From Micavibrio aeruginosavorus (lineage in GTDB: Bacteria > Pseudomonadota > Alphaproteobacteria > Micavibrionales > Micavibrionaceae): DNA of 64,000 nucleotides. A program made the position numbers and the translations under genes. The notes under the pieces were generated by a model that had not been told where the DNA came from, did no database searches, and was given only the letters and a program-made list of their open reading frames with translations. Below are positions 1,907 to 46,123 of this stretch, one piece after another (within the stretch, counting starts at the first letter, position 1; each line of letters begins with the position of its first letter). Location of the stretch: assembly GCA_003241475.1 (NCBI GenBank), contig QFQB01000001.1, forward strand, positions 24,997 to 88,996. The letters are read 5' to 3'.

Positions 1907-4900
1907 TTAGGGCAGTTCCACGCGGACCGGCAGCTGGTTGTCCGTAGTATCCTGTCCGTCACCGTTTTTACCGAAATTTGTTTCTCCCCAGCACCACATT
2001 CCACCATTGACACGGGTACCGCAGGTATAATCGCTACCCGCGCTGATGGCGACCCAATCCGACCACGTTCCCGTTCCTGCATCGTCCTTGACCTGAACGG
2101 GTTCTGTGCGGTTGGTCGTGGTTTGTCCGTCTCCCAGTCGCCCGTTCGCGGCATTGCCCCAGCACCACGCCGTGCCGTTCGAGCGAATTCCGCAAGCGTG
2201 GCTGTAGCCCGGGCTTATCTGCACCCAGTCATACCAGTATGTGCCAGAACCGTCTTTAACCTGTGTTGGAACATTGGAGTTCGATGTTCCGCCGTTGCCC
2301 AAACGGCCTGAGCTTCCGGTACCCCAGCACCACGCCGACCCGTCGACGCGCAAGCCGCAACTGAATTCATTTCCCGCAATGGCAGAAGTCCAATCCGCCC
2401 ATCCAGCGCCTGCAGAGCTGTTCAGTACTTGCACGGGGCGAGTTTGGTTCGTGAAATCGTTGTTGTTGCCGAGCGCGCCGCCAAAGGGCGTGCCCCAGCA
2501 CCACGCCGTGCCGTTAGTGCGCGTACCACATCCATGTGTTCCCGAAGCGGAAACCCTGACCCAGTCCGACCATCCAGGCGAAGCCGAGTCAGTGTTTACT
2601 TCCGAAGGTGTATCGTAAGTAGACCAGATGGTTCCATTGCCCAATTTTCCAAAGGAGCCAATTCCCCAACAATAAGCACGTCCATTACGTCTTAGACCGC
2701 AGGTGTGATCTTCGCCCGCATCGACCATAGTCCAGTCCGACCACGTTCCCGTTCCTGCGGTATCTTTGACCTGAACGGGACGTGTGCGATCTGTGGAAGT
2801 TTGGTCATCGCCAAGCTGACCGTTGTTGGCGCGTCCCCAGCACCACGCTGTACCATTTGCGCGAACGCCGCATGCATAATCACGTCCTGTCGAAACCGTG
2901 GACCAATCCGCCCATCCGGCAGAGGTGCTGTCAGTTTGCACAAGTGTGGGATTGAGTGAGTTTGTGGTGCTCTGGAAATTACCCAGCGCGCCGAATTCAG
3001 CCTTACCCCAACAGTAAAGTTCACCGTTTGGTTGAATGCTACAGGAAATATTTGTCAGTGCCTCGAAAGTGCCAAGATATTTTTTCCAAATGACCGATGT
3101 CGCCGTTGGCAAAGTTGTCCAAGCCGAGCCGTTGCAATACTGCCATGGCGGCGTTACCGACGTGTTATAGCGCACAGCGCCAGTATTGGCGGCGGCGCAA
3201 TCCGCATCTGTCCCGAACCGCACGGCGCCATTAACATCCACGGCGACGGCGGGCGTTTCCGTACCAATACCCATTTTGCCGTCCGTTGCGATGGCCAGAT
3301 CGGATGAGATGACGTTCATGAAATTCGTCGCCGCAGTGTTGTTGCGCCCGATCTCAAGATTGCTGTTGGCGTGGTCAATCCCGAAAGAGCGGGGAATCTG
3401 AAAACCGCTACTTTCAAAGCCGTAAAGCTGCCGCGCTTCCGCATCCGTAAAGGCTCTGTTGTAAAGTCTTACGCTATCGAGGCCGCCTTTAAAGCGTTGC
3501 GTTGGAGAGGCCGCGCCGTTCTGTCCAAAATAGAGAGAGCCGTTTGCGGTGTTATCGTACTGCACGGCAGTGGCAAGCGTTTTAGAATTGCTTAATGCGC
3601 CGTTTATGTAGATTTTCTTCAGCGAGTTGGTCGGGTTGTAGACCATGATGACATGTGTCCAACTATCGTTACTGATCCGGCTTCCGCTGGCGAGCGTATC
3701 TGTCGTACCCGTATGTCCTGTTTCAAAATTAACAACACCGCTTTGGCCCGTCATGGAGGCAGCATAGCTGTTGAAAATCGGCGAGGCGTTGCTGTTGTAG
3801 GTTTTTGCAATGATCTTTGCGCCCGCAGCTTGTGTACCTGTTGGGTTTACCCAGAACGATAGCGTGAAATCGGCAGGTTGTAACGCTACGTTGCTCGATA
3901 TCGTGATGTTGTCATCCACGCCGTCGAAAATGGCCGCACCGTCAATGCGCCCGTCACTAGGTGCCCAGAGCGTGCCGTTGTTCAATGTCCCGGTATAGCT
4001 ACCACCGTCGCTGGAGGCCGTTCCCGCGCTCTCGTCTAGCTTCCATCGTGCTACATAATCCGTGATATCCGTTGCCGTTGTGTCGGCTGTCGTCTTGAAA
4101 GTAATTTGCGACGAGGTTGTTGCGGCCGTTGTTTCCAGCAAAAGCTGGCTCGGGGCGGACGACTCCCTCACCGCTGCGCGTCCTGCTGCCGTGAATCCAA
4201 ACCCTGTAGCCGAGCCGTCCGGTGAGAGGTAATTCGCCCCGATGCCGACATTCATGCCGGGGCCGATGATGGTCGAAAATGTATCGTTCCATCCCCATAG
4301 CGGATAATTGGGTATTGATTCCACACGTGACGGTGCAGGCTGGTCTGCTGTCAGAACGGACCCGTTACCAAGCTGTCCATATGTATCATCACCCCAGCAA
4401 AGAACGCTGTTGTCTGCCTTCATCGCGCAAGAATGGCTGTTGCCTGCGGCAACGGCAACGGCCTTGCCAGCACTTCCCACTTTAAGCGGAGAGGTAAGTG
4501 GTGAGGGAGTCCCACTATTCCCGAGCTTGCCATCTGCCGTCTGCCCCCAGCAATAGACATCGCCTTCGGCTCGTAAGCCACAGGTGTGGTAGCGGCCGGG
4601 CCTGATATCAATCCACGGTCCGGGTAGGGAAACCAAAGATGGTGATTGCGCATCCGTCGTCGTGTTGTTGCCGAGCTGTCCTTGTGCACCCGCCCCCCAG
4701 CACCATGCAGATCCGTCTGCTTTTATGCCGCAGGCATGGTTTTCAAAAGCGTTGATGTTCACCCATGGCCCGAAGTCATTAACGGTTGCAGGTGCCGATA
4801 CGCTACCACTACTTCCATTGCCAAGTTTCCCGGATGTATCCGAGCCCCAGCAATAGGCGCGGCCATCCGATCTAATACCACAAGTAAATTGATAGCCCGC

Positions 4901-7900
4901 CGTTATATCCGTCCAATCAGTTGCAGTCCCGATTTGCACAGGAGCGGCTTGCGTGGCCGCCGTCGATCCGTTACCAAGTTGCCCTTGCGCTTCCGAACCC
5001 CAGCACCAGAGCGTTCCATTCGCTTTGACCCCGCAGGAATGGTCTGCGCCCGCGACTATTTTGCTCCACGGTATTCCATCGCTTACGACCATGGAAGGTG
5101 TTTCTTGCGTCGAGCTTATGGCTGTGTTGTTGCCAAGCTGGCCTGAAGAATCGCTACCCCAGCAGAAACCATTTCCATCGCCGCGTACGCCACAGCTGTG
5201 CCCCCCATAAGAAGAAATATTCGACCAGCCTGCGTAATTTGCCGCAGGTGTTTGCACAGTTGATGTTGTATTCAGTGTAATGACGACGCTTCCCGAGTTG
5301 CAATTATTTGTCATCGCGTAACGAAGGCGGAGCCTATCCGTTGAGGCAAAAGTTCCCAAATCAACAGAACCTGTAAATGTCTGCGAGGCGCCGACAAGGG
5401 ATATTGTATTGCCAAGTTGTGCTTCGGTTTGCAGTGTGCCACCTGAATTTACGCGCCCGGCATATGCGTTGACGGCGACGCAGTCGGCTGTTGCAGTATC
5501 CGTATAGTTCAATGTGGTTGTATAGGTCCGCGCTCCTTGCCCATCATCACGTCCTGGCGATCCCGCTTCGGTGTACGCATAAAATGTTGAAGTGGCGTAA
5601 GAGTTTATAGCGGTAAGCACAATACTACCCGTTGCTTGAGGTGACATCAAAAGTTGCCATCCCGCAGGGGTTAAGGCTGACGCGACAGTGGATAGATAAT
5701 AGGTATCGGTAGAAATACCGGCAACGGGGTAGGGGGCAACACTGTCCGATACCGCAGATCCATTGCCAAGTTGTCCTGTATTGTCGCGTCCCCAGCACCA
5801 AGGCTCACCTTCTTTTTTGACAATGCATGTGTGATTCTCACCTGCAACCAAAAGTCCCCGTGCCGTATCGATATAAGGGCTGGAACGGATTGGTTGGCGA
5901 ACATCGGCTTCATGCATCGAAACTTTGGAAAGTTGTACAGCTTCCGCAGGAGATAGCGCCCGGCTATAGACGCGTACATCGTCAATACCGCCGTCGAGAT
6001 CCCAGTCTGTGCTACCATTTCCGTGGCGACCAAACCAAGTGTTTGCGCCCGCGCCCGTCCAGACGACATCTGCCGTGTTTTCAACATCTGCCGCCATCAT
6101 TCCATCGACATAAACTCTGAACCGATCATTAGTGCTATCAAAAGTGCCAACAACGTAATGCCATCCCGTTCCTCTTAATTCGCGGTTTGTCGGAACCTGG
6201 TTCCAGCCTCCGCTGTGGTGATAACCCATGCGAAGCCCAAATGTCGTGTCAGCAGAGAACATCACAATATCGCCGATGGAGAACAGGCTCACGCCATTGG
6301 TGTCGTAAGAGTTTATGTTGAGCCAGAAGGCGATCGTTCCTTGGTTGCTTAAATCCAAAAGGCCGGTGGCTTGTGCGGCCGTTCTATCGTCTTTATCAAA
6401 AAGCAGGCTTCCATTTCCATGCGGACCACTGGCCCAATGCGGTTCGAACGAGGACAAGAATGTCGCGGTATGGGAACCGATGCTATCAGCAAAAGTCGTT
6501 CCTGTTTTTTCATCCATCTTCCAATGGGCAACAAGTCCATCATCAAGCGGGTCGTCTAAAGTCTGGCCGCCGGATGTCGAGGTAGGAACCTTGTAGCCTC
6601 CAGGCGGATTGGGGCTACTGCATTCATATCCGGAAAGAATGTAAAAACCGTCATTTTCTGTGGCCACATAAATATAGTTTCCATCGCCCCAAACAGCATT
6701 GGCGCTGGTTGTTCCCGACCATGTTTCCTGTAGTGCGATAGTTGTGCCGTCAAAAGTATAGGCGTTAATGCCGCCACCATTGACCGCCACAAAAATATTA
6801 ACGCCATCAGACCAGATATCATTGGCGGCAACTGCCTCGGAATCGATCATCGTCAGAACACCGCCTGTAAAGCCATAGGCGTAAAGGGTCGATCCGTTGG
6901 TTGTGAAATAATAATCTTGATTTCCTGTAACCTTGCCACCACCGTTTGTTCCTGCCGTGGCCTTGACCGTGAAGGCTGATCCATTGAATCCAAGAGCGGC
7001 AGGCGCCGCCGCACAATCGCCCAGCAATAAAGTTGTCCCATCGCCCCAAGAAGAGCATGCATTGACACCAGCATGAGTGCCCGCCAAGGTAAAGGCTGTT
7101 CCATTGAAAGAATAGGCAGAAAGTCCGCCGCCTGCCGCCGCCGCATAGACGTAATCGCCATCAGACCAGACACTGTTGACGTTGGTGGCGAAGGCCTCAT
7201 TATCAAGTTGGGTAAGATCGGACCCATTGTAAGAAAGAGCGACCAAGCGCTGGCCGCTTGTCGTTGCGCCGGCGTAAACATAGTTGTCATCGCCGCTCAA
7301 TGTGGACCAGCCTGCGCTACCGCCACCGATGGTATCTATTTCGATTAAATTCGTACCGTCATAGTTATAGATGCCGATGCCATCCGATGCGCTGGCGATG
7401 TAGATATCTTGATTGCGGGCGCCGGTACGCGTCCATATGTCCTTGATCCCTGTTGTGGGGGAAAGATTACCGACAGCGGCGAAAGGCCCACCGCGATTGG
7501 CAGTACAGTTCCCCAGTTCGGGACGGAAATCAGTCGGAGCCGCTTCGCCGCTACCTGAAATTCCAACCCAGCCGTTGCCGTTTGCGAAATCACACATCTC
7601 GATTGTCGGCGGCGTAGTTGTCGTGTTGCGTCGAAGCTGACCGTTCTTTGCCTCGGTATCGCAATCTCCGGTGGCGCCTTCAGGCGGCAGAACAATCCCC
7701 TGAGAGGTTAGGTTTACGGCGCCATCAAAGCTCGCACCACCTGTGCTTGTCGATTCAATATTTTTGTCTATTTGCGCGGAATTGGCGTCAGCGCTGTTAA
7801 TTTTCCACAAGCCTCCGCCGATACCGTTGGCTTCCGCATAGGTGTAGCTCAATACAATATCGTCGCTACCGGCTGGTTTGTTGAGCATAGGTGAATCCGG

Positions 7901-8515
7901 TACGCCATCACCATCTAAATCAACGTAATCGTTACAAGACGTTTCAAAGGTGCCATTCTTACCTGCGCTGATAACTGCGATCGCGGGCTGATCATCACGC
8001 GGCGCGCCGGTCAGCCTGTTCATAGAAGCGTCTGCAGGGACATCCGCGCATCCCGGCACTTCGTTTGCAGGAACGGAGTCGTGAATCGTGGTGACTGTGC
8101 CGGGATCCCAAACACAGTAGCCGTATTCTGTTCCCCAAGGATCGGAAACGCTTGTCCCCATCGTGTAAGGAATAAGTCCGCCGCCTGTGGGCACAGGTTT
8201 TGACCCCGGATCACGGTAAGGTAATCCTTCAACAAAGCCGTCGGAATCACAATCGCCGCCGTTCGTTTGCTGGGTGGTAGCGGATGCGATGGCCAGACGT
8301 GTTGAAGCCACAAGATTGTTTTGCGCGATAGTCGAACGGGTAATGTTGGCAGACGTTGCGCCGGGTCCTCGCAAAATCGTATTTAGTCCATAAGTAATGA
8401 CGCCCGCCATTCCGACAGCCGCGAACAGCATCAAGATAGCGTTACCGGCCTCACGACCCCGCTGTTTCTTTCTGTCTATCGCCGTGCTTACGGTCATGTT
8501 GCCATTATCATCCAT
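1907..8515 (-). CDS. giant modular surface protein 1 (pilin-like head, propeller-like repeats, 2 LamG, 2 RCC1 propellers)
   Basis: 2202-aa ORF; ATG 8513-8515 lies 1 nt from the stop of the upstream gene. Modules (aa): 1-45 basic N-terminus plus hydrophobic helix (AGNAILMLFAAVGMAGVITYG); 85-325 GspG-like head (DPWGTEYGYCVWDPG, IAVISAGKNG); 335-632 ~40-aa YVYA/AYSF-G repeats; 658-863 LamG (LVAHWKMDE...IDDVRVYSRALSPAEA); 885-1400 RCC1 x7 with a 170-aa insert; 1486-1699 LamG; 1738-1802 fibre-tip-like motif (MGIGTETPAVAVDVNG...GAVRYN..WQYCNGSAW); 1815-2202 RCC1 x7. Confidence 0.9.
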   Translation of the reverse strand: MDDNGNMTVSTAIDRKKQRGREAGNAILMLFAAVGMAGVITYGLNTILRGPGATSANITRSTIAQNNLVASTRLAIASATTQQTNGGDCDSDGFVEGLPYRDPGSKPVPTGGGLIPYTMGTSVSDPWGTEYGYCVWDPGTVTTIHDSVPANEVPGCADVPADASMNRLTGAPRDDQPAIAVISAGKNGTFETSCNDYVDLDGDGVPDSPMLNKPAGSDDIVLSYTYAEANGIGGGLWKINSADANSAQIDKNIESTSTGGASFDGAVNLTSQGIVLPPEGATGDCDTEAKNGQLRRNTTTTPPTIEMCDFANGNGWVGISGSGEAAPTDFRPELGNCTANRGGPFAAVGNLSPTTGIKDIWTRTGARNQDIYIASASDGIGIYNYDGTNLIEIDTIGGGSAGWSTLSGDDNYVYAGATTSGQRLVALSYNGSDLTQLDNEAFATNVNSVWSDGDYVYAAAAGGGLSAYSFNGTAFTLAGTHAGVNACSSWGDGTTLLLGDCAAAPAALGFNGSAFTVKATAGTNGGGKVTGNQDYYFTTNGSTLYAYGFTGGVLTMIDSEAVAANDIWSDGVNIFVAVNGGGINAYTFDGTTIALQETWSGTTSANAVWGDGNYIYVATENDGFYILSGYECSSPNPPGGYKVPTSTSGGQTLDDPLDDGLVAHWKMDEKTGTTFADSIGSHTATFLSSFEPHWASGPHGNGSLLFDKDDRTAAQATGLLDLSNQGTIAFWLNINSYDTNGVSLFSIGDIVMFSADTTFGLRMGYHHSGGWNQVPTNRELRGTGWHYVVGTFDSTNDRFRVYVDGMMAADVENTADVVWTGAGANTWFGRHGNGSTDWDLDGGIDDVRVYSRALSPAEAVQLSKVSMHEADVRQPIRSSPYIDTARGLLVAGENHTCIVKKEGEPWCWGRDNTGQLGNGSAVSDSVAPYPVAGISTDTYYLSTVASALTPAGWQLLMSPQATGSIVLTAINSYATSTFYAYTEAGSPGRDDGQGARTYTTTLNYTDTATADCVAVNAYAGRVNSGGTLQTEAQLGNTISLVGASQTFTGSVDLGTFASTDRLRLRYAMTNNCNSGSVVITLNTTSTVQTPAANYAGWSNISSYGGHSCGVRGDGNGFCWGSDSSGQLGNNTAISSTQETPSMVVSDGIPWSKIVAGADHSCGVKANGTLWCWGSEAQGQLGNGSTAATQAAPVQIGTATDWTDITAGYQFTCGIRSDGRAYCWGSDTSGKLGNGSSGSVSAPATVNDFGPWVNINAFENHACGIKADGSAWCWGAGAQGQLGNNTTTDAQSPSLVSLPGPWIDIRPGRYHTCGLRAEGDVYCWGQTADGKLGNSGTPSPLTSPLKVGSAGKAVAVAAGNSHSCAMKADNSVLCWGDDTYGQLGNGSVLTADQPAPSRVESIPNYPLWGWNDTFSTIIGPGMNVGIGANYLSPDGSATGFGFTAAGRAAVRESSAPSQLLLETTAATTSSQITFKTTADTTATDITDYVARWKLDESAGTASSDGGSYTGTLNNGTLWAPSDGRIDGAAIFDGVDDNITISSNVALQPADFTLSFWVNPTGTQAAGAKIIAKTYNSNASPIFNSYAASMTGQSGVVNFETGHTGTTDTLASGSRISNDSWTHVIMVYNPTNSLKKIYINGALSNSKTLATAVQYDNTANGSLYFGQNGAASPTQRFKGGLDSVRLYNRAFTDAEARQLYGFESSGFQIPRSFGIDHANSNLEIGRNNTAATNFMNVISSDLAIATDGKMGIGTETPAVAVDVNGAVRFGTDADCAAANTGAVRYNTSVTPPWQYCNGSAWTTLPTATSVIWKKYLGTFEALTNISCSIQPNGELYCWGKAEFGALGNFQSTTNSLNPTLVQTDSTSAGWADWSTVSTGRDYACGVRANGTAWCWGRANNGQLGDDQTSTDRTRPVQVKDTAGTGTWSDWTMVDAGEDHTCGLRRNGRAYCWGIGSFGKLGNGTIWSTYDTPSEVNTDSASPGWSDWVRVSASGTHGCGTRTNGTAWCWGTPFGGALGNNNDFTNQTRPVQVLNSSAGAGWADWTSAIAGNEFSCGLRVDGSAWCWGTGSSGRLGNGGTSNSNVPTQVKDGSGTYWYDWVQISPGYSHACGIRSNGTAWCWGNAANGRLGDGQTTTNRTEPVQVKDDAGTGTWSDWVAISAGSDYTCGTRVNGGMWCWGETNFGKNGDGQDTTDNQLPVRVELP
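1910..3073 (-). repeat. RCC1-like blade array, 7 blades, WSDW type (coding, C-terminus of giant protein 1)
   Basis: Seven ~52-aa units CG.R.NG.AWCWG....G.LG.G...RP.PVQVK....G.WSDW. On the plus strand each blade shows as ccccagcacca. Confidence 0.85.
4316..5863 (-). repeat. RCC1-like blade array, 7 blades, GPW type, with an insert after blade 1 (giant protein 1)
   Basis: PWCWGRDNTGQLGNGS (blade 1), then a non-RCC1 insert at aa 930-1095, then six blades (GFCWGSDSSGQLGNN ... VLCWGDDTYGQLGNGS). Confidence 0.8.
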
Positions 8516-8516
8516 T

Positions 8517-11500
8517 TTATAAAGTTACCCAAGCAGAACCATTGCAATATTGATAGGGTGTCGCACCACCGACATAGCGGATGGCACCCGTGCGCAAGAC
8601 GGTGCAGAGCAGGCTGTTATCGGCACCGATCTTCAGGCCGCCGTTGATTGTAAGTTTGTTTGGAATTGTACCGGAAGTCCCAACTCCAACACCTCCTGTT
8701 GTAGAAATTTCGACTTGTGGCGTAATAGCGTTCATATAGTTGGAGACGCCCGCATTATTTACGCCCAGTTCAAAGAAGGACGTTGTATAGTCAATGCCCG
8801 CGCTACGGGTCGCGCTGGCTGTTACCGTTTTCCAAGATAATTGCGCGGAAGCGTTTGTTCCCGCAGCCTGAAGCAACAATTCAGAACTTCCGGGGTTTTG
8901 CCGCAAGACAGAATTGCCGGCAGACGGGAAGGATAGGCCATTGCCCAGTGAAGAAATGGCAGTCGCATCGTAGCTGATGCCTGCAGATGTTCCCATGGAG
9001 ATATTCGATGCGCCCGCGGCGGACAAAGTCGTACCGTTGTCTGTCCATTGCCACGGTGAAATATTCGGAAAATTTTCAACTCTTGAAGGTATATGCATCG
9101 GGTCGGTCACGATCGCGGTCCCGTTGCCGAGTTCTCCGTTCGCATCCGTGCCCCAACACCACGCCGAACCGTCAGTTTTTAGGCCGCATGCTTTTTCTTT
9201 CCCTGCCACAATCGTGGCCCACGGTCCTGGATCCAGCACGCGGCTTGGAACCGGCATACTAGAGGTCAGCGTGTCTCCATTGCCGAGCTGGCCTTTGTCG
9301 TCTTCGCCCCAGCACCAAGCGGTCCCGTTCGTCTGCACGCCGCAAACGGTTCCGTCGGTCAGAGAAACGGAAACGTCGAGCCATGGCCCGGCGTTGGAAA
9401 CGGGGGCAGGAATAGAATAAAGCGTTGTGTTAATGGCGCCGTTACCGAGTTGTCCGAGTTCGTTTCGACCCCAACACCAAAGAGAGCCATCGAGCTTTAC
9501 TCCGCAAACCGATTCATAGCCGCGGCTGATCTGCACCCATGGCCCTGCGTCGGAGACTTTAAAGGGAGACACTTCATCCGTGCCGGTTGTGCTATTACCG
9601 AGCTGCCCGTAATTGTTACGCCCCCAGCACCACGCCGAACCATCCGATTTGATCCCGCACGAACCATCATAACCCGCGCTGATTTGCGTCCATGTGCTGG
9701 TTGAATCCACGGCGCTAGGCGCTTCTTGTGTGGCTGATCCAGCACCGTTGCCAAGGCGGCCGTTTGTATCTACGCCCCAGCACCAAGCGGTGCCGTCAGC
9801 CTTGATTCCGCAGGCATGTTCCGTTCCTGCTGAAACCTGTATCCATGGCCCCGTTCCGGAAAGGGAGCTTGGAGAAGTTTGGTCCGCGGTCAGCACAGCA
9901 CCGTTGCCAAGGCGCCCACCTGTGTCAGAGCCCCAACAGGAGATGGCACCGTTCGATTGTAGGCCGCAACTGAAATCGTCCCCCGTTGTTATCTGAACAT
10001 ATCCGGCCGTCCCGTTAACGCGGCTCGGTGAGGTTTTGTTGCCAGCGGCGCTACCATTGCCAAGCTGTCCATTATCGGCGGCGCCCCAACACCACGCCGT
10101 TCCATCCGGTTTGACCCCGCAACTGGAGGCTTCGCCTGTTGAAATACGGCCACGGTATTTATCAGCGGCAAGAACGGTGGCGGCCGATAGAGCGGTCGGC
10201 GTATCGCAAGCAAAACCGGTGAAGATATCGATCGGGTCGTTTTGGTATGTAACATACAGGTAACTACCGTCCGTGCGGAAGGCACGGACCTGATCTTCAA
10301 TCGGATAGGATGAAATCACTTTGAAGTTGCTACCATCAAAGCGCAAAGCCTGAATTTGTGTGCTTCCGTAGCCTGCAAAAATATTGACGCCGTCACCAAA
10401 TCCCCAACTTAGTGTTTGGCCGGAATTGTATGTGCCAGCCAGCGTGAGGGCTGTACCGTCAAAAGAATAGGCAAGCAAGTTGTTGGTTGCAATATAGATG
10501 TAATGACCATCTCCCCATGAAGCGCGCGTATCGCCGCCAGCGGGCGTGATTTGCGCGACTTGTGTGAAAGCGCTACCAGAGAAGGTCAGAACGTAAAAAC
10601 CGCCGTTACCGGCAGAGACATATATGTATGTGCCATCCGACCATATATTCGATGCCGTTCCCGCATTGTCGAAAGACCCTGCCAAGGTGAATGTGCCGCC
10701 GCTAAAGCTGTAAGCCCGGACAAAACCACTTTCGGCAACATAAACATAGCGACCGTCTCCCGTAACATCGAGGGCGGCAGAACCTGGTGCGATCTGACCT
10801 GTTTTTGTAAAGCTCGTTCCATCAAAGGAGTAAGCAAGCAGATCATCGCTTCCTTGCGCAACGAAAATGGTCGCGCCGTCGAAATATTGCCCATTGATTG
10901 TGTTGCCATCGACATCTTGCTCATTATCAAGTCGCGTCAGTGTTCCCGCGCCGCGCGCAAAAGCACTCAGGCCGTTATTGTATCCACCGACGTAGAGGTA
11001 ATCTTCGGTCATCAGCGGTGTGCGGTAATAAAATCCATTGTCGGATTGGCCGACCTTTGTGAAGGGCCCGCTACCGGCAGCCTTGCAGACATTCATTTCC
11101 TGATGAACACCCTGAGTATCGGACGCGACATCTTCTTCAATCGTTTGCCCATATGTGCCCTCGTAAAGTGCCACCATTTCATCTGCAGAGAGTGCACGAT
11201 TAAAGAAGCGGATATCGTCCATTTTGCCGTCGAATTTAAGCGAGCCGGAAACGGCGCTTCCGAACGTAAAATTATAAGGAAGGCCGGTCGCCGGTGGACC
11301 CACGGCTACACTACTTCTTTCGATCCCATCGACATAGGTGCGCAAGCGCGTTCCATCATAAGTACAGGCCACAAAATACCATTGGCCCGGTGTGACCGTA
11401 ACGCCAGATGGCCCGGTACCAAACCAATTCCCAGAAGAGGCTTCTTTTTGCTCGCATCCCAGCGGGCTTCCCCAGTCATGGCTCCAGTTAAAAGTTTTAT

Positions 11501-14375: not shown

Positions 14376-17300
14376 TGGAACTGCACCTGCACGGGTATGG
14401 TGGACTGGCTTGTGCTGTTGTTGCCAAGGCGGCCGTTCGAGTTATTACCCCAGCACCATGTCGTGCCGCTTGAGCGAATGCCGCAAGTATGGGAATTACC
14501 GGCGATGACTTGAACCCAGTCATACCAGTAGCCAGTCCCTGCGCTGTCATAAACCTGAACTGGCAGAGATCTGTTCGTACCGGATGTACTGTCGCCCACC
14601 TGACCGTTGGCATTCAATCCCCAGCAATAGGCGCTACCATTTGCACGGATGCCGCACACCTGACCGCCGCCCGCACTAAGGCTCAACCAATCGGAGTAAG
14701 CGCTACCACCGCCGCTGTCTTTTACTTGTACCGGAAGCGATACGTTGTTTGTGGTCAGCCCGTCGCCACGCGAACCCCAGTTGTTGATGCCACCCCAGCA
14801 CCATGCCGTCCCATCTGCACGAATGCCGCAACTCATGCCTGCCCCAGCGGTAATCATTCGCCAATCGGTCCAGTTCCCGCCGCCACCGCTGTTCTTTACC
14901 TGAATGGGCAATGGGTTGTTCGTCGTAGCTGTTGTACCGTTCCCCAATTGTCCATTGGAGCCATTCCCCCAGCACCACGCCGATCCGTCAGTGCGGATAC
15001 CGCATGTTTGCTGATAATAGCCATACACGCTGGTCCAGTCCGACCATGTACCTGCACCACTACTATTTTTTACCTGTACAGGGCGAGCGTTAACGCTGGA
15101 TGTCGTGCCATTACCCATACTTCCATTCGTGTCCGTACCCCAGCACCAGAGTGTTCCGTTGCTACGCAAGCCACAGCTGTAATATCGAGCGATGCTTAGT
15201 TGCTTCCAATCAGACCAGTAACCTGCGCCGGACCCATCGCTGTTTTGAACCCTAACAGGTCTGCTTGAGGATGCTGATCCATTGTTTCCGAGCTGACTGT
15301 TCGTGCCTAGCCCCCAGCACCAAGTAGTGCCATCGGCACGAAGGCCGCACGCATGGTTGCCGCCGCTACCAACTTGTTTCCAATCCGACCATCCAGGTGT
15401 GCCTGTGCTGGTATGAACGGTAACGGCTTTGGTTGCATCGGGGGTTGTTGTTCCGTTTCCAAGTTCGCCATCTGCTGCGCGTCCCCAGCATTTTGCATAG
15501 CCATCAGACATGACGGCGCAACTGCCGTTCACTCCTGCAATATTGGCTTGGCTGTTGGTATTCATCAAGACGCTGGTTGTGGTCATCGTACCCCATGGTC
15601 TCCAGGAACCGCCACTACGGCAATATTGCCACGCGCTACCCGTCCATTGAATTGTTCCAACTTTGCCCGAAGTGCATCCACCGCCGTCATTGCCGATCTT
15701 GATCGCGCCGTTGACATCCAGTTTTGTAGCGGGCGCACCTTTTGTGCGGATGCCGACATTGCCTGTGCTACCAATTTCAAGATCAGGTTGCAGACTTGTC
15801 ACAAGGGCATCAGGGTTATTTGTCGTTCGGGAAATTTCGAACGATCCGGTATTATAATCGAGCCCTACTGAGCGGTTTGCGTAGAGTTGCGATGTGTTCT
15901 CGTAAACCTGTTGTATTTCCGAGGCGCTTAAAGCCCGGTTGTACATACGGACATCGTCCATTGCGCCATTAAACGGACTGGAGCCGTTCGATCCTGCGCC
16001 GATCCCCATATTAGAGGCAGCAGATACAGGAGTTCCGGCAGCAACACTGGAAACCTGATTTCCATCGATGTACATGCGCAAGGTGGTGCCGTCATAGGAG
16101 CAGACGATAAAATACCATTGGTTTGCGACCATATTGATCGGCATTACGGGCGAGGTTACGCGTCCTGACCCATCGTTTTGTTCACAAGTTATCGGATAAC
16201 CCCACTGGTGGCTCCAGTTGACCGAAAAGTTTTCGTTCCGGTCGAACATCTTGCTTGTAACGCTACCCGTGGTAGGCGCCGTATAGCCTTTTGCCCAGAA
16301 AGAAACCGTGTAAAGCGGCAAGTATAAGGACGCGTTATAGGTAACGAGAACAAATCCCGACGATCCGTTGAAGGATAGAGCGCCATTGTCTACACCAGTC
16401 GCAGGTGTCAGAACCCCGGACCATGCCCACCCACCGTCGGTTGTTCCGACAGAATCATCTACAAAGGTTCCATAAGTTTCATCCATCTTCCACCGATGCA
16501 CGAGGCCGCTCGTTACGTCGCCGGAAGCTGTTGCGGAAGCTACATTCAAGCGAATTTGGGATGCATAAGATGTGCCGCGGGCATCAAGAAGTAACTGGTT
16601 TGCCGTACTTTGTGTGATACTTGCCCCATCACTGCGCAGACGCAAGCCGGTCGATGTCCCATCACCGGATATATAACGCGTTGTTCCTATTATGGGGTTT
16701 AGATTCCACAAGGCGGATAAACCCGTGCTGGTTTCATTGGCATACCATGCGCTACGGGTGGGTGTGTCGAGAACCTTGCTTGGCAAAGTGGTAGATCCGA
16801 AAGATGAACCGTTTCCTAGCCGCCCGTTCGTATCCGTACCCCAGCACCATACATTTTCATTAACGTCGGTTGCGCAAGATGCGTTTATACCGGGTTGCGC
16901 GGTCATGAATTTTTGTGCACCCGTAACCCGCACAGGGATTTCTTGTGCTGCGACATTTAAACCATTGCCGATGCGGCCATTGTTACCCGCCCCCCAGCAC
17001 CACGCGCCGCCATAGATATCCGTGCCGCAATTATGCTCTACGCCAGCCGCAATAGACATGAAGGGTGCATTCGTGAAAGCCCTTACAGGAGATGTTTGGT
17101 CTTCAGTTATGTCGCTTCCATTGCCTATAAGACCATTTTCGTCTTTGCCCCAGCACCACACGCTTCCATCGTTTTTCAATCCGCAGGTAGCTTTGCCTGC
17201 AGATATTTTTGCCCATGGTCCGGGATCGTCTACTTGCGAAGGCGTATTTTGTGATGTGTTGAGAACGGCTCCATTGCCGAGCTGTCCGTTCGAATCAGAT

Positions 17301-20300
17301 CCCCAGCACCACGCAGTTCCGTCTTTTTTGATGCCGCAACTCGTGTCAGGCCCGGCAGAAATATCAATCCAAAGGTCATCGCCAGATACTTCAGCAGGCG
17401 AGGAGACGCTTCCGCCACCTGTGCCGAGTTTTCCATTCGAGTTCGATCCCCAGCACCATGCTGTACCATCGGTACGAATACCGCAGGCATGATCTGTTCC
17501 GACGGAAACTTTCGTCCACATAAGCTCATCATCCGCAACATCGACGGCAACAGGAGATGTTTGGTCGCCAGCCCCGCCAGCGCCAAGCTGTCCGTTTGAA
17601 TCAGAACCCCAGCACCACACGCTCCCGTCCGTTTTTAATCCGCAGGTCGAGGTAGAACCAAAGCCGGTAGAGATATCCAGCCAGGGTCCCGCATCACTCA
17701 CTGGACTGGGCTGTTGCTGACTACCGCTAACGGCACCGTTACCAAGTTGTCCGCTACCGTCTTCGCCCCAGCACCACGCAGTTCCGTCTTTTCGCACCAT
17801 ACAGGCATGCTTTTCGGCAGAAGCCAGTTTGACCGGCGCAATATTCGCGCTCGATAGATTTTCCTCACGTACATCAGCAAGAGCCGTTGTAAAAGAATCG
17901 CCTGCCGATACATCGACGTAGCCAAAGCCGTAAGCGCGGACAGGTATGGAACTAGTTCCTGTGTGATCGCCTTTGCCCAACTGGCCACTTGTGTTGCTTC
18001 CCCAGCACCAGATTTCGCCGCCCTTGCGCAAGCCGCAGGCATGGGTGTTGCCAACGGAGACTTTTACAAAATCCGTGATGTTGGAGACTTGTGTAGGACG
18101 AACCTGATCGCTGGTTCCGCCATTCCCGATTTGTCCGTCATCGCCATTCCCCCAGCACCAGATCGTACCAGTACCCCGCACCGCACAACCTTTGTTGCCA
18201 TTGGTGTCTATATCAACGAAATTAGGTTCATCATCATCGTAAACAGCAACGGGCGAATTCTCCTGACCGGTTGCCGTGTCGTTACCCAGGCTTCCGTCAA
18301 CGCCTTCACCCCAGCAATAAGCTTCGCCTGTTTTGGTAATTCCGCAGGCCTGGTTTCCCGCATTCCGTGAGGCCGTGATGGAGACAAAGTCCGTGATGTC
18401 AGACACGATGGCTGGCGTGCTTTGGTTTGCCGTAGATCCGTTGCCGATGACACCTTTCGATCCAGTACCCCAGCAGGCGGCTTCCCCACTTTGACGTACG
18501 CCGCAGGCAAAATTCACGCCCGTAGCGATATCAACGAAATCGGTGTAGGTAGAAACTTCTATAGGTGTAGCGCTGGTCGTAGCGCTTCCACCACCGAGAC
18601 CACCGCTACCGTTGCCCCAACAGTAAGCATGGCCGTTGCGTTTGATCGCACAAGTGCGGTTTGCACTGGCCGAAACTTTTGAAACATTCGACAATTCTTG
18701 AACCTGCACAGGAACGCTGATGCTTGCCGCAGTCGTTTCACCGTTACCAAGCTTGCCGTCTGTCTGGTCACCCCAGCACCAGACCGTTCCGCCCGCGCGA
18801 ACGCCACAAGCATGTTTGGTGCCGGCCGAAACCTGCACAAAATCATAAGCGGAGACAACCGGTTGCAGTCCGTCGTGCTCTTGGTATATCGGACCGTTAC
18901 CCGTGCGCTCATCATCATCGATTCCCCATGCCATTGCTTGCGCCGGACGTTTGGGGCGGCTGAGGCTGACATCCGAAGGGCGCGCCTCATTGTATAGATC
19001 ATTAATATCAGCCGCCGACATCGCGTAGTTATAAATGCGGACATCGTCGATCATTCCGCTCATATACGGCCCGCCTGTGCCGCCCGATCCAATAAAAACC
19101 TTGTCGTTAACAGTTTTGGAATAGGCGATAGCATCTGTAAGCGTTTTGCTGTCCGCTAATTGTCCGTTGATGTAGATTTTTTGTTGTGGCGCTGTGGCTG
19201 AAGGGCTGTAAACACCTACGACATGAACCCATTGACCGTCGCCAGCAGAGCTTGTACCGGACAAAGTGCTTGTCGCACTCGCGGTCCCAATGCCGAACGT
19301 CGGGTAGTAAGATGTTCCCGATTTTTCAAGCGTGAGCGCATAGCTGTAGTTGGGACTACATCCGCTACTACAGCTTTTTGCAACAATAGTCGTGGATGTT
19401 GCTGGTGATCCTGTGCGTTTTACCCATGCAACAACTGTTACCGCCGTTGGCTCTAGACTAGCGCTTCGTTCAACGCTGACATACTGGGAACTGGCGGACG
19501 TAAATTGAAGCGCATTGCCCAGATATCCTGTTGTCCAGGCTGGCGCGTTGACGAGTGTTCCATTGTTGTTGCCGCTGGAATCGGATGCACTTGTTCCGCC
19601 CGTTTCATCCATTTGCCAGTACGATACCAACGTTCCTGTGAGGCTTGCATTTCCGCCGCCACTTTCGCTGGATGTGCCCACGCCCGATAGCGGCGTCCAG
19701 CCCAGCGATTGATCGCAAATTTCAATTGTAGGCGGGTTTGTGCCGGTGTTACGGCGTATCTGCTTGTCATTAACCGTGGCACAAGCGCCGGTCAAAGAAT
19801 TGTCGCCGGGGTCTCCGGGCAAACGAAGGCCCCCACCAGTTAAACTGTTACCGGTAAGAACGACACCACCCGCGATGGTCCCGCCCTGCTTAACTTCGAG
19901 CCCCTTGGGTGTGACGGCGGTTCCGCTGTCGTTCGCTTTAGGCTTCCAAAGGCCCGCGCCAAGATCGTTTGCTTCTCTATAGCTGTAGGCAAGAACGATG
20001 TCGTCGCTTCCGGGCGTGCGTGTAATCAACGATGCGTTCGGTGTCAATGCGTTGAACGCAGTGCAACTTGTCTGAAATTTACGATCCTTCCCTGCACTGA
20101 TGAGTGCGATAACATATTGCTTTTGATCCGATCCGCCTTGCAGGCGCCCTGGCGTTGCGCCGCCGCAGGCCGCAACAGCATCGGAAACGGATATCGATCC
20201 GACATCCCAGGCGCAATACCCGTAGCGTGTATTCCATGGATCCTTGTCATCAGGAACAAGGCCTGTCGGAAGATAGCCGCCGCCCACAGGACTTTCTGCG

Positions 20301-20632
20301 CCGCCCGCATCCGTATAGGGAAGCGGTTCGATCGAACCGTCGCTGTCGCAATCGGAAATATCGGCGTTGGTCAGAGTGTCTTTTTGCTGTGTCGCATTGA
20401 CGATGGCGAGACGCGAAGTCGTGATGACCGTATTTTCGGCCAGCGTTTTGCGCGTGACTTCCGTCATCGTGCTCATCGGGCCGCGCAAGACGCTGTTGAA
20501 TCCGTATCCTACCGCGCCGACCATGGCGAGGGCGGCAAAAAGCGCGAAGAAAATATTCCCCGCGTTGCGTGCAGGAGGATTGGATTCGCGTACCAAAGCA
20601 TGGATGTCTTTGTGCGCGAAGTATTTTTTCAT
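14372..20632 (-). CDS. giant modular surface protein 3 (pilin-like head, 2 LamG, 3 RCC1 propellers)
   Basis: The ORF track (14372..20704) begins at a TTG. The first ATG (20630-20632, MKKYFAHKD...) leaves 24 aa before the GN-hydrophobic anchor, as in protein 1. Modules (aa numbered from 20704): 47-75 anchor (AGNIFFALFAALAMVGAVGYG); 115-345 head (DPWNTRYGYCAWDVG, VIALISAGKDRKF); 358-572 LamG; 615-945 RCC1 x6; 955-1312 RCC1 x7; linker; 1400-1602 LamG; 1638-1704 fibre-tip-like motif; 1715-2110 RCC1 x7. Confidence 0.85.
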   Translation of the reverse strand: MKKYFAHKDIHALVRESNPPARNAGNIFFALFAALAMVGAVGYGFNSVLRGPMSTMTEVTRKTLAENTVITTSRLAIVNATQQKDTLTNADISDCDSDGSIEPLPYTDAGGAESPVGGGYLPTGLVPDDKDPWNTRYGYCAWDVGSISVSDAVAACGGATPGRLQGGSDQKQYVIALISAGKDRKFQTSCTAFNALTPNASLITRTPGSDDIVLAYSYREANDLGAGLWKPKANDSGTAVTPKGLEVKQGGTIAGGVVLTGNSLTGGGLRLPGDPGDNSLTGACATVNDKQIRRNTGTNPPTIEICDQSLGWTPLSGVGTSSESGGGNASLTGTLVSYWQMDETGGTSASDSSGNNNGTLVNAPAWTTGYLGNALQFTSASSQYVSVERSASLEPTAVTVVAWVKRTGSPATSTTIVAKSCSSGCSPNYSYALTLEKSGTSYYPTFGIGTASATSTLSGTSSAGDGQWVHVVGVYSPSATAPQQKIYINGQLADSKTLTDAIAYSKTVNDKVFIGSGGTGGPYMSGMIDDVRIYNYAMSAADINDLYNEARPSDVSLSRPKRPAQAMAWGIDDDERTGNGPIYQEHDGLQPVVSAYDFVQVSAGTKHACGVRAGGTVWCWGDQTDGKLGNGETTAASISVPVQVQELSNVSKVSASANRTCAIKRNGHAYCWGNGSGGLGGGSATTSATPIEVSTYTDFVDIATGVNFACGVRQSGEAACWGTGSKGVIGNGSTANQSTPAIVSDITDFVSITASRNAGNQACGITKTGEAYCWGEGVDGSLGNDTATGQENSPVAVYDDDEPNFVDIDTNGNKGCAVRGTGTIWCWGNGDDGQIGNGGTSDQVRPTQVSNITDFVKVSVGNTHACGLRKGGEIWCWGSNTSGQLGKGDHTGTSSIPVRAYGFGYVDVSAGDSFTTALADVREENLSSANIAPVKLASAEKHACMVRKDGTAWCWGEDGSGQLGNGAVSGSQQQPSPVSDAGPWLDISTGFGSTSTCGLKTDGSVWCWGSDSNGQLGAGGAGDQTSPVAVDVADDELMWTKVSVGTDHACGIRTDGTAWCWGSNSNGKLGTGGGSVSSPAEVSGDDLWIDISAGPDTSCGIKKDGTAWCWGSDSNGQLGNGAVLNTSQNTPSQVDDPGPWAKISAGKATCGLKNDGSVWCWGKDENGLIGNGSDITEDQTSPVRAFTNAPFMSIAAGVEHNCGTDIYGGAWCWGAGNNGRIGNGLNVAAQEIPVRVTGAQKFMTAQPGINASCATDVNENVWCWGTDTNGRLGNGSSFGSTTLPSKVLDTPTRSAWYANETSTGLSALWNLNPIIGTTRYISGDGTSTGLRLRSDGASITQSTANQLLLDARGTSYASQIRLNVASATASGDVTSGLVHRWKMDETYGTFVDDSVGTTDGGWAWSGVLTPATGVDNGALSFNGSSGFVLVTYNASLYLPLYTVSFWAKGYTAPTTGSVTSKMFDRNENFSVNWSHQWGYPITCEQNDGSGRVTSPVMPINMVANQWYFIVCSYDGTTLRMYIDGNQVSSVAAGTPVSAASNMGIGAGSNGSSPFNGAMDDVRMYNRALSASEIQQVYENTSQLYANRSVGLDYNTGSFEISRTTNNPDALVTSLQPDLEIGSTGNVGIRTKGAPATKLDVNGAIKIGNDGGGCTSGKVGTIQWTGSAWQYCRSGGSWRPWGTMTTTSVLMNTNSQANIAGVNGSCAVMSDGYAKCWGRAADGELGNGTTTPDATKAVTVHTSTGTPGWSDWKQVGSGGNHACGLRADGTTWCWGLGTNSQLGNNGSASSSRPVRVQNSDGSGAGYWSDWKQLSIARYYSCGLRSNGTLWCWGTDTNGSMGNGTTSSVNARPVQVKNSSGAGTWSDWTSVYGYYQQTCGIRTDGSAWCWGNGSNGQLGNGTTATTNNPLPIQVKNSGGGGNWTDWRMITAGAGMSCGIRADGTAWCWGGINNWGSRGDGLTTNNVSLPVQVKDSGGGSAYSDWLSLSAGGGQVCGIRANGSAYCWGLNANGQVGDSTSGTNRSLPVQVYDSAGTGYWYDWVQVIAGNSHTCGIRSSGTTWCWGNNSNGRLGNNSTSQSTIPVQVQFQ
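14375..15562 (-). repeat. RCC1-like blade array, 7 blades, WSDW type (C-terminus of giant protein 3)
   Basis: AKCWGRAADGELGNG ... TWCWGNNSNGRLGNN with PVQVK(N/D) and (W/Y)SDW spacers. Codons for C-W-G checked at 15482-15490. Confidence 0.85.
16769..17842 (-). repeat. RCC1-like blade array, 7 blades, GPW type (giant protein 3)
   Basis: AWCWGEDGSGQLGNGA through VWCWGTDTNGRLGNGS, with spacers GPWLDIS and GPWAKIS. Confidence 0.85.
17870..18862 (-). repeat. RCC1-like blade array, 6 blades, TDFV type (giant protein 3)
   Basis: VWCWGDQTDGKLGNGE, AYCWGNGSGGLGGGS, AACWGTGSKGVIGNGS, AYCWGEGVDGSLGNDT, IWCWGNGDDGQIGNGG, IWCWGSNTSGQLGKGD, with spacers (I/Y)TDFV. Confidence 0.8.
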
Positions 20633-20850
20633 AAAGCGTAGCAATGACAAACCCCAGCGAGCCGCCCCCTTCAAGCCGCGAATGGTTCGGACAAAATACC
20701 CCAACCTTTATTATCCGGCCTGAACGGTTAAAAACCGCTAAAATTTTAACTATTTAAGGATTGCGGGCGCAACCCATTGTAAGAGAACAAAAATATGAAA
20801 TCATTCACAGAACGATACACAGCCCTCTCATGCTACTAGAGAAAGGGGGG

Positions 20851-20885
20851 TTCGAAAAGAGGCGTTTGTACAAAAAACGCCCCCC
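20851..20885 (-). terminator. putative intrinsic terminator downstream of secB
   Basis: Minus strand reads GGCGTTT-TTTGTAC-AAACGCC (7-bp stem, 20861-20881) followed by TCTTTTCGAA, 25 nt after the secB stop. Confidence 0.45.
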
Positions 20886-20905
20886 GCTACTGGAGAAAAG
20901 AGGCC

Positions 20906-45044: not shown

Positions 45045-45464
45045 ATGACCAAAATCCTTGCAGCCTGCCTGATGTTAGCCGCACAGACATACTCTGTGCC
45101 GCCGGCTGTGCTCGTAGGAATTCACCAAGTAGAAGGCGGAAAAGTGGGGCAGGCCGTCGGCCCGAACGACAACGGCACCTACGATCTCGGTCCCATGCAG
45201 ATCAACACATTGTGGATCCCCGAACTGGCCAGCAAATGGGGCGTGACCGAAGGCACCGCCTATCGCTGGGTCCGCGACGATCCTTGCACCAACATGGGCG
45301 TTTCCGCGTGGATTTTGCGCACGCACATGAACGAAACCGGCTCGCTCTCTCAGGCCATCGCCCATTATCATTCCAGAACCCCCCAATACGGCCATCCCTA
45401 CAAGGGCAAGGTCGTGGCCGCGATGCGGGCCAAGGGTTTGCTTCGCGACGCCAATACGCGCTAA
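45045..45464 (+). CDS. small lytic transglycosylase (SLT domain, VirB1/TrbN-like)
   Basis: 139 aa. Signal-like N-terminus, catalytic region GIHQVEGGKVGQAVGPNDNGTYDLGPMQINTLW, and AIAHYHS. Directly precedes dotD. Confidence 0.75.
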   Translation: MTKILAACLMLAAQTYSVPPAVLVGIHQVEGGKVGQAVGPNDNGTYDLGPMQINTLWIPELASKWGVTEGTAYRWVRDDPCTNMGVSAWILRTHMNETGSLSQAIAHYHSRTPQYGHPYKGKVVAAMRAKGLLRDANTR

Positions 45465-46119: not shown

Positions 46120-46123
46120 GCTG

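Follow-up and report, generated by a model that had tools for sequence, protein, structure and literature searches.

The 64,000-nt stretch of DNA analysed here (the window; contig QFQB01000001.1 of a Micavibrio aeruginosavorus assembly) contains an operon of three genes, g3, g2 and g1, whose products share an N-terminal module, referred to below as the head, and carry lectin-type and propeller domains behind it. An open reading frame (ORF) scan placed the three genes on the minus strand, with products of 2110, 1952 and 2202 aa, respectively, and agreed with the first-pass annotation that they fill positions 1907-20704, with an ATGA overlap at one junction and a 1-nt gap at the other. The products of g1 and g2 and SecB have exactly the sequences of PZQ49098.1, PZQ49099.1 and PZQ49101.1, respectively, from a Micavibrio aeruginosavorus metagenome-assembled genome (MAG), in which PZQ49098.1 and PZQ49099.1 carry only a 'hypothetical' annotation. 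The TTG at 20704 is merely the longest-ORF start of g3; the ATG at 20632 (MKKYF...) is more likely to be the true start, and would give a leader of 24 aa. No clear Shine-Dalgarno sequence was apparent upstream of the g2 and g1 starts, which fits termination-reinitiation, and from this arrangement we infer translational coupling of g3-g2-g1. The promoter of the operon probably lies in the 201 nt that separate secB from g3.

Module boundaries were set with hidden Markov models (HMMs) built in this analysis for each module, and domain identities were taken from Pfam (Table 1). These profile searches reproduced every domain assignment that had previously been made by eye. A regular-expression search for xxCWG blades returned exactly 41, compared to an earlier hand count of about 41, and distributed them over six RCC1 propellers, the number of arrays first proposed: 6+7+7 blades in g3, 7 in g2, and 1+6 (split by an insert) and 7 in g1. 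With blades of ~51-58 aa, in line with RCC1 models, the propellers matched the RCC1/WD40_RLD families (PF00415/PF13540/PF25390) at E-values of 2.5e-150 to 5e-60. Likewise, the six LamG folds described at first correspond to two Laminin_G_3 (PF13385) stretches per protein, scoring 147-165 bits against a cutoff of 27.6. In g2, Lectin_C (PF00059) was matched at E=1.7e-10 (42 bits; cutoff 22.6), and Lcl_C/DUF1566 (PF07603) at 25.6-30.4 bits, under its gathering score of 34.9. The propeller-like repeat of a second type, which had been listed among the parts that the three proteins reshuffle, is present in g1 and g2 with weak LVIVD/PQQ matches in Pfam and is absent from g3; one family member outside the window gave an LVIVD match at 3e-26. 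The linker (PreLink/LinkTip) and its Cys motif occur in g1, g2 and g3, and each protein contains 40-52 cysteines.

The N-terminal anchor and head are common to all three proteins, as the first description held, and the heads are 34-42% identical in pairwise comparisons, with 35-42% identity among the paralogues. The further proposal that the three proteins permute one module set went too far: g1 and g3 keep one colinear order through their C-terminal ~1100 aa (1181 aa aligned at 37% identity), g2 terminates at its LinkTip module and is alone in carrying the C-type lectin domain (CTLD) and Lcl_C, and a 159-aa insert is confined to g1. DNA repeats between modules and blades are 60-79% identical, and no inverted repeats were found within 1907-20704. 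Active cassette shuffling is thus ruled out by repeats that are at most 79% identical and by the lack of inverted repeats, and the modules are instead old paralogues. The CTLD of g2 sits between the second and third predicted strands of the head; in the g2 orthologue of another Micavibrio locus (L001), a CTLD-like segment lies near the C-terminus (position about 1687) rather than in the head.

Table 1. Genes, junctions and modules of the operon (aa, residues of the respective protein)
Feature	Position	Strand	Description
g3	14372..20704	-	2110 aa counted from TTG; Head, LamG, RCC1x6, RCC1x7, PreLink, LamG, LinkTip, RCC1x7
g2	8517..14375	-	1952 aa, PZQ49099.1; Head with inserted C-type lectin, LamG, Lcl_C-like, LamG, LVIVD-like propeller, RCC1x7, PreLink, LinkTip (C-terminus)
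g1	1907..8515	-	2202 aa, PZQ49098.1; Head, LVIVD-like propeller, LamG, RCC1 blade 1, insert, RCC1x6, PreLink, LamG, LinkTip, RCC1x7
secB-g3 spacer	20705..20905	-	201 nt; weak terminator-like hairpin 3' of secB at 20897-20880
g3 stop/g2 start overlap	14372..14375	-	ATGA; coding-strand sequence CAATGATAATG
g2 stop/g1 start	8513..8519	-	TAA, single base A, ATG (TAA-A-ATG)
g3 head	19655..20596	-	aa 37-350; leader ending in Gly, hydrophobic helix, GspG-like beta domain, Cys hairpin
g2 head, N-terminal part	13815..14369	-	aa 3-187; module HMM
g2 C-type lectin domain, inside head	13389..13754	-	aa 208-329; PF00059
g2 head, C-terminal part	13017..13427	-	aa 317-453; module HMM
g1 head	7541..8497	-	aa 7-325; module HMM; AlphaFold2 helix 26-82, strands 132-137, 177-183, 220-225 (predicted)
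g3 LamG-a	18977..19639	-	aa 356-576; Pfam, module HMM
g3 LamG-b	15884..16513	-	aa 1398-1607; Pfam, module HMM
g2 LamG-a	12366..12998	-	aa 460-670; Pfam, module HMM
g2 LamG-b	11151..11777	-	aa 867-1075; Pfam, module HMM
g1 LamG-a	5915..6544	-	aa 658-867; Pfam, module HMM
g1 LamG-b	3407..4066	-	aa 1484-1703; Pfam, module HMM
g2 Lcl_C (DUF1566)-like domain	11805..12083	-	aa 765-857; Pfam, sub-threshold
g3 RCC1 array, 6 blades	17918..18844	-	aa 621-929; Pfam, regex, module HMM
g3 RCC1 propeller, 7 blades	16757..17839	-	aa 956-1316; Pfam, regex, module HMM
g3 C-terminal RCC1 propeller, 7 blades	14375..15556	-	aa 1717-2110; period 57-58 aa; regex, module HMM
g2 RCC1 propeller, 7 blades	9063..10157	-	aa 1407-1771; Pfam, regex, module HMM
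g1 RCC1 propeller	4307..5860	-	blade 1 aa 886-936; insert aa 937-1095; six blades aa 1096-1403
g1 159-aa insert, between blades 1 and 2	5231..5707	-	aa 937-1095; no family match
g1 C-terminal RCC1 propeller, 7 blades	1910..3079	-	aa 1813-2202; regex, module HMM
g2 second-type (LVIVD/PQQ-like) propeller	10182..11108	-	aa 1090-1398; weak Pfam, module HMM
g1 second-type (LVIVD-like) propeller	6596..7528	-	aa 330-640; weak Pfam, module HMM
g3 PreLink and LinkTip, either side of LamG-b	15593..16777	-	PreLink aa 1310-1398; LinkTip aa 1604-1704 (nt 15593-15895); profile; rung motif and Cys hairpin
g2 PreLink and LinkTip	8520..9083	-	PreLink aa 1765-1862; LinkTip aa 1850-1952; profile
g1 LinkTip	3110..3412	-	aa 1702-1802; profile
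g1 PreLink	4061..4327	-	profile

The head has features of a type IV pilin or pseudopilin, which goes beyond what the first-pass annotation claimed and suggests a route of export and presentation. Among 210 unique head members, the leader is short (median 17 aa) and basic (net charge +2), and closes with [QE]-[SRA]-G directly ahead of a hydrophobic segment of ~20 residues, in a [QE]-x-G context that resembles GspG and PilA. The Gly at this boundary is invariant (alignments A1, A2 and A3). It is followed by N-[IV]-F-F-[ATMV]-L-F-[GA]-A-V-A-[LM]-V-G and then by [KR]-G-P at positions 25-27, with Gly at position 14 in 175 of the 210. Further downstream comes a small Cys-rich domain of three strands with the motifs GGG-L-P...DPWGxxYGYC and h-I-S-A-G-x-D; the head also has a DxDxDG-like loop ('GDCDxDGxxEP') and four conserved cysteines, with a disulfide hairpin at its end. 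AlphaFold2 (AF2) predicted a single helix of 57 residues (26-82) in the g1 head, with a pLDDT of 74-95 past residue 30, followed by strands YGYCVW, AIAVISA and IVLSYT and by a short helix with a Cys-hairpin mini-domain; mean pLDDT was 76 for the full head, and a truncated model reached a pLDDT of 83 and a pTM of 0.79.

We compared the head profile by hhalign with four GspG sequences; of these, XcpT equals PDB 2KEP residue for residue, and PulG and EpsG are consistent with PDB chains. The alignment (probability 86.9%) was colinear through the leader Gly, the hydrophobic helix, GG-[YL]-[IL]-x-x-LP-x-DPWG-x-x-Y-x-Y and h-h-S-x-G-x-DG. When the globular part was aligned without the helix, GspG scored 29.5, compared to a maximum of 17.5 among 40 column shuffles, and the reversed template gave a probability of 0.7%. 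A GspG HMM run on 174 heads scored a median of 4.5 bits, with all heads above the decoys (reversed/shuffled, -0.8).

Proteins with this head form a large family. With the g1 head as query, a word-indexed search returned 33 relatives, none with a name, while an exhaustive search with the head profile returned 1135 representative clusters (50% identity), 716 of them at E<=1e-30. In every case the head was N-terminal, in proteins of 240-6785 aa; the largest member found was P0155, with 6785 aa. Domains at the C-termini of 35 representatives included RCC1 (10), LamG (8), Peptidase_S74 (6), Lcl_C (4), Gly_rich (3), FG-GAP (2), CTLD (2) and Gp34_trimer (1), and members also carry shaft motifs of the T7-tail-fibre and Shufflon_N types. 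An S74 HMM scored C-termini positive in about 20 of 98 ORFs at the genomic loci and about 35 of 170 representatives, including all three genes of the tandem triplets L057 and L069. Judged from these architectures, the head is a constant carrier for variable C-terminal modules. None of the Pfam, NCBIfam and PHROG models matches it, and among the papers searched we found none linking Micavibrio with these proteins or describing the head. The claim that no characterised family has this layout therefore holds as far as Pfam and NCBIfam head models and published descriptions are concerned; the operon itself is present in at least 4 other Micavibrio MAGs, and the head family exceeds 1000 clusters. 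Head genes of >3600 aa that run past the fetched DNA (L026, L043, L047, L056, L060, L061 and L068) lack the modules seen in the window, save for occasional LinkTip repeats.

A genome scan with the head alignment returned 194 stretches, mostly from Micavibrio or uncultured alphaproteobacterial MAGs, with a few from Stella, Hyphomicrobium, Methylobacterium, Nitratireductor and Rhizobiaceae; 77 loci (L-numbers) were used for ORF, module-HMM and neighbour analysis. Genes like g3, g2 and g1, in the same order and with the same architectures, were found at Micavibrio MAG loci L001, L002, L003/L008 and L012. Their junctions are ATGATG overlaps (of the g3/g2 type in L008 and L012) or gaps of a few bases, and the dnaQ flank is kept in L003. 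The g1, g2 and g3 lineages each keep their own N-terminal signature across species. Identity between orthologues was 52-63% for the head and 44-59% for LinkTip, compared to 28-44% for LamG and 34-49% for the propellers, while CTLD, Lcl_C, the second propeller and the g1 insert were gained or lost; the insert is kept in L001 (34%) and L003 (42%) and absent from L002 and L004. As read from these sequences, the pattern is that of a conserved assembly or anchoring scaffold with fast-evolving ligand-binding parts. It excludes the reading of the genes as pseudogene-like remnants, which had been raised at the outset and which the existence of orthologues with the same architecture contradicts. At the loci, head genes often stand in tandem, two or three in a row.

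The short segment termed LinkTip connects the three proteins to known fibres. Searched against the PDB, its profile found as best matches the Bdellovibrio MAT fibres 8OND (Bd2133; E=3.1e-4), 8ON4 (0.01), 8OML (0.012) and 8OL4, with the alignment running through the rung motif G-x-VGIGT-x-x-P-x-x-KLDVNG (KL-x-V-x-G in consensus form), and against PHROGs it found tail-fibre families at about 1.6e-4. These matches support the fibre-tip-like motif noticed by eye. Head and LinkTip end alike, in the Cys hairpin C...G-x-[IL]-R-[YR]-N...C-x-G-x-x-W. The MAT-like part amounts to one ~100-aa stretch per protein, and g1-g3 contain no S74 domain. Given that MAT fibres and tail fibres are trimeric and that S74 acts as a chaperone of trimerisation, a homo- or heterotrimer is reasonable; by this analogy, LinkTip probably mediates oligomerisation into a trimer.

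Taken together, these findings are best explained by one operon of three paralogous, extracytoplasmic, multivalent carbohydrate-binding fibres or adhesins on a pilin-like carrier in the epibiotic predator Micavibrio, a reading to which we give an even chance of being right. The three subunits would be made by coupled translation, exposed at the surface as oligomers and bind glycans or prey. An oxidising, extracytoplasmic location is indicated by the many cysteines of each protein and the C-type lectin fold. The adhesin or fibre interpretation first put forward thus stands as the best available, on the grounds of domain content, conserved cysteines and analogy; contact with prey is a plausible role in Micavibrio, but does not characterise the family as a whole. 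As to the carrier, a very divergent, Glu5-less and GspG-like type IV pilin or pseudopilin is the leading but unproven assignment. Several observations weigh against these readings. Position 5 is A/T/M/V/I/L in 210 of 210 heads and never Glu, a hallmark of assembling pilins (the tip pseudopilin GspK is also without Glu5). No Pfam or NCBIfam match to N_methyl (PF07963/IPR012902/TIGR02532), T2SSG (PF08334) or TadE (PF07811) was obtained, even at E<=10 on 20 isolated heads; PDB HMM-versus-sequence searches with head profiles A1 and A2 found no pilin, and Foldseek found no match for the full and truncated heads in the PDB or for the truncated head in BFVD. The GspG likeness depends largely on short motifs and one profile-profile comparison. 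A regular expression for canonical G-F-T-L-I-E pilins found none in the window and loci. Neither pilus or type II secretion system (T2SS) genes nor a prepilin peptidase lie near the operon within the 64-kb window, and clustering of neighbours across the 77 loci recovered housekeeping synteny and a DotI-like gene only, with no pilus or T2SS gene and no prepilin peptidase among the conserved neighbours. A subunit of 2000 aa far exceeds any pilin shown to assemble, and the family also occurs in non-predatory Alphaproteobacteria (Stella, Hyphomicrobium, Methylobacterium).

Several of these same points, namely the missing pilin model or structure match, the absent Glu5 and the lack of linkage to machinery, would be expected if the proteins were the same adhesin fibres with an ordinary Sec signal-anchor or uncleaved signal at the N-terminus, the head being a novel Ca/Cys-rich domain that docks on an envelope component, with export across the outer membrane by another route. 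The 'GDCDxDGxxEP' loop and the four conserved cysteines of the head suit such a domain, and the MAT proteins offer a precedent in a constant N-domain that has no PDB homologue and binds an unknown surface element (PMC10769870). We nevertheless judge it unlikely, if by no means far-fetched: it leaves unexplained the invariant boundary Gly in its [QE]-x-G context, the membrane segment predicted to begin one 57-residue helix that packs on the domain, and the colinear hhalign match to GspG, which beats every shuffle. Moreover, an inner-membrane anchor alone cannot put a 2000-aa lectin array outside a diderm cell.

The remaining alternatives place the proteins in other systems or deny them a function. 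That they are substrates or accessories of a Dot/Icm-type type IVB secretion system (T4BSS), delivered into or onto a target cell, is very unlikely. The window does contain dot genes, a DotI/IcmL-like gene neighbours head genes at 19 of the 77 loci, head genes of free-living Alphaproteobacteria lie in a mobile-element context (ArdC, resolvase), and Legionella has RCC1-repeat effectors; but 25 kb separate the dot genes of the window from the operon, which sits amid housekeeping genes, the DotI-like neighbour belongs to one syntenic block with ubiB and acs, and the N-terminal membrane or secretory segment, the 40-52 cysteines, the disulfide-dependent C-type lectin, LamG and the tail-fibre motifs are traits of Sec-exported extracellular proteins. 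The tail-fibre families matched by LinkTip, together with the S74, Gp34_trimer, T7-tail-fibre and Shufflon_N-type shafts of other members, could also point to domesticated or remnant phage tail fibres, or to receptor-binding proteins of a tailocin. The chance of this is slight at best, given that no phage structural, lysis or integrase genes surround the operon, that its chromosomal position between secB and dnaQ is kept across species, and that g1-g3 have no S74 domain and a head without a PHROG match behind an N-terminal transmembrane segment, which virion fibres lack. Finally, the source is a MAG, and repeat-rich genes mis-assemble easily. However, the probability that the genes are decaying, silent or mis-assembled repeats of a metagenome bin is negligible: the three ORFs are unbroken over about 6 kb each, blade copies that are only 60-79% identical in DNA make collapse or chimerism unlikely, orthologues of the same architecture occur in independent assemblies, and part of g1 together with dnaQ is found on independent short ENA and Logan contigs.

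Returning to fibres on a pilin-like carrier, by analogy g1-g3 would operate like three described systems. In modular pilins (S. sanguinis PilB/PilC; CofB/TcpB), PF13385 and S74 are among the most frequent grafts, a place at the tip of the filament has been proposed for the proteins, and CofB forms a trimer (Raynaud et al. 2021, PMC8179133). The three Micavibrio proteins share with them a carrier with a Gly-ended leader, hydrophobic helix and small beta domain that precedes ligand-binding modules; they differ in that the head lacks IPR012902/N_methyl and Glu5, no machinery is encoded nearby, RCC1 is not among the listed grafts, and even the largest modular pilin cited (860 aa; PMC8179133) is exceeded 2-4 times in length. 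The Kil (Tad) pilus of Myxococcus xanthus has four interchangeable Tips, and in each of them three minor pilins of the KilL/M/N type, encoded by a three-gene cluster, make up a heterotrimer; the Tips are disulfide-rich, with three alpha1 helices as the base and a variable distal domain proposed to tune prey range, and the clusters lie mostly off the machinery locus (Herrou et al. 2025, PMC12075869). Here, too, a predator encodes a three-gene cluster of pilin-like proteins with many predicted disulfides away from the machinery. In contrast, the proteins of the Kil Tips are homologous to TadE/TadF/TadG, differ in size and have G/xxxxE-type sites, whereas g1-g3 are paralogous to one another, measure about 2000 aa each and have a head that is GspG-like rather than TadE-like; no TadE domain (PF07811) or G/xxxxE[FY] site was found in the heads. 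The 21 MAT (mosaic adhesive trimer) fibres of Bdellovibrio bacteriovorus combine a constant N-domain with mosaic tips and fall into S74 and non-S74 subtypes, and one of the fibres binds glycans; a cleavable signal peptide precedes the N-domain, which is beta-rich and ~130 aa long, and trimeric fibre makes up most of each protein (Caulton et al. 2024, PMC10769870). The likeness lies in a multigene family of a predator, a constant N-terminal module, mosaic adhesive C-termini and the LinkTip rung match. Unlike MAT proteins, g1-g3 have a helix-anchored head of ~300 aa, a beta-helix of only ~100 aa, and a bulk of globular lectins and propellers, and from the description of MAT proteins the head is probably a different kind of domain from their N-domain.

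Other systems resemble the operon less closely. PilV of the R64 (IncI) thin pilus combines a pilin N-terminus and a tail-fibre-like shaft with variable receptor-binding C-termini, and has a W-A-S-L-E prepilin site. Some head-family members match Shufflon_N in the shaft, and a recombinase is adjacent to the head gene in some Alphaproteobacteria; unlike the situation in PilV, there is no recombinase near the operon and there are no inverted repeats within 1907-20704, and variation arises by paralogy rather than by DNA inversion. The Shufflon_N matches (two members) were rejected as a link between the head and PilV, given that phmmer puts the match in the shaft (PilV 91-322 versus P0114 683-917), and hhalign found no match between the head and PilV. 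PilY1/PilC are large tip adhesins of type IV pili (T4P) with a seven-bladed propeller of the PilY1 type (IPR008707) and variable N-terminal modules. PilY1 is not itself a pilin but docks on minor pilins, and no PilY1-type domain was found in g1-g3. The haloarchaeal Tat-fimbria protein TafC (NF052521) was likewise rejected, with 78-92 bits against a cutoff of 410 and an alignment limited to the LamG-like part (PMC11821415).

If g1-g3 are indeed adhesins on a pilin-like carrier, the ~300-aa carrier module would enter the inner membrane via Sec and would be lifted out by a type IV filament or a T2SS-like machine, so that the protein ends at the distal tip of a short filament; the loss of Glu5 would parallel tip subunits such as GspK. 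The remaining ~1700 aa would form a string of ligand-binding beads, comprising two LamG domains, the C-type lectin and Lcl_C-like domain of g2, and the RCC1 and LVIVD-like propellers, interrupted by the tail-fibre/MAT-type beta-helix segment (LinkTip), which would trimerise. Tight start/stop coupling would yield the three subunits in similar amounts, and they could serve either as three alternative adhesins or as one heterotrimeric tip like the Kil 'Tips'. A bolder proposal is that the members of the head family are dedicated tip carriers of type IV filaments, a Glu5-less branch that has so far gone unrecognised, and that the Micavibrio paralogues, produced in fixed proportion from the coupled operon, form, through their alpha1 helices and LinkTip, a heterotrimeric multi-lectin, multi-propeller 'grappling head' that binds prey glycans on a pilus or a GspG-less T2SS-like machine; as a whole, we consider this quite unlikely. 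In M. aeruginosavorus ARL-13, T4P genes were reported, and a T2SS was annotated without GspC/G/H/K (PMC3189940). Older work implicated carbohydrate receptors in the attachment of Micavibrio to prey (PMC3189940). Among the rows listed in ARL-13 RNA-seq tables, only the unrelated smaller RCC1 genes GMV_129 and GMV_1467 were found (higher in attack phase), with orthology not established.

What is new here is an unannotated, widespread pilin-like head family and a conserved operon of three paralogues in an epibiotic predator lineage. To our knowledge, reviews offer on prey recognition by Micavibrio only 'T4P genes' and old hints of carbohydrate receptors. The operon supplies concrete candidates, in which a single protein has as many as four lectin-type domains (g2) or as many as three propellers. 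With >1000 clusters at 50% identity in no domain database, the constant module may be a new pilin-like carrier, in which case surveys of modular pilins based on N_methyl would overlook a whole class, and the 'interchangeable tip' principle known from Myxococcus and the MAT fibres of Bdellovibrio would reach a third, unrelated predator lineage.

The gene order around the operon is aroE-coaE-dnaQ / g1-g2-g3 / secB-fxsA-tim44-mltA, with housekeeping genes as flanks on both sides. The dnaQ gene is convergent with g1, and their stops (1905 and 1907) are separated by a single base, which leaves no space for a terminator on either strand; the same arrangement of convergent stops is found in L003 (17863/17865). 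The genes for two-partner secretion (TPS), T4BSS and flagella that had been invoked as fitting company are represented in the window by a TpsB gene, T4BSS genes and flagellar genes, but none adjoins the operon, which is set between secB and dnaQ. The flagellar genes are flgK and flgL, and the window also holds a gene for a sigma-54 activator, likewise not adjacent. The Dot/Icm-type T4BSS lies in two pieces, at 45045-48117 (SLT, dotD, dotC/traI and dotB, with the dot genes at 45.6-48.1 kb) and 59232-62760 (dotI/icmL, E=1.7e-60; dotH/icmK, E=2.8e-80; and a TrbI/dotG-like gene; 59.2-62.8 kb); the ARL-13 genome paper reported M. aeruginosavorus to be without a type IV secretion system (PMC3189940). 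Between flgK and the dotI cluster, three minus-strand ORFs at 53250-55073, 55598-56944 and 56944-59052 (607, 448 and 702 aa) had no Pfam match. A 1920-aa right-handed beta-helix (Beta_helix/NosD) protein is encoded at 24781-30543 (-), divergent from a TpsB/ShlB-type transporter gene at 30929-32665 (+). Pfam found no TPS (Haemagg_act) secretion domain in this protein, so that its pairing with TpsB as a classical two-partner system is unconfirmed.

Two further associations were seen at other loci. A divergent DotI/IcmL-like gene (233 aa; PF11393, E=3.5e-9; e.g. L039:7061-7762) neighbours single giant head-family genes, together with ubiB and acs, at the 19 loci mentioned above (L024-L026, L038-L040, L043, L047, L049, L051, L053, L056, L059, L061, L067, L068, L074, L076 and L077); this linkage may be phylogenetic inertia of the syntenic block. 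In free-living Alphaproteobacteria (L044, L046, L065, L050, L041 and L029), the neighbours of the head gene are a Hin/Gin-type serine recombinase, an mTERF-like ORF and ArdC. At the Hyphomicrobium loci among these (L044:7581-9974 and L046, with identical coordinates), the interval from the recombinase to the operon contains two palindromic hix-like sites of 18 nt, at 8214-8231 and 8362-8379, with a spacing of 130 nt. This pair may mark an invertible promoter that would make expression of the fibre phase-variable.

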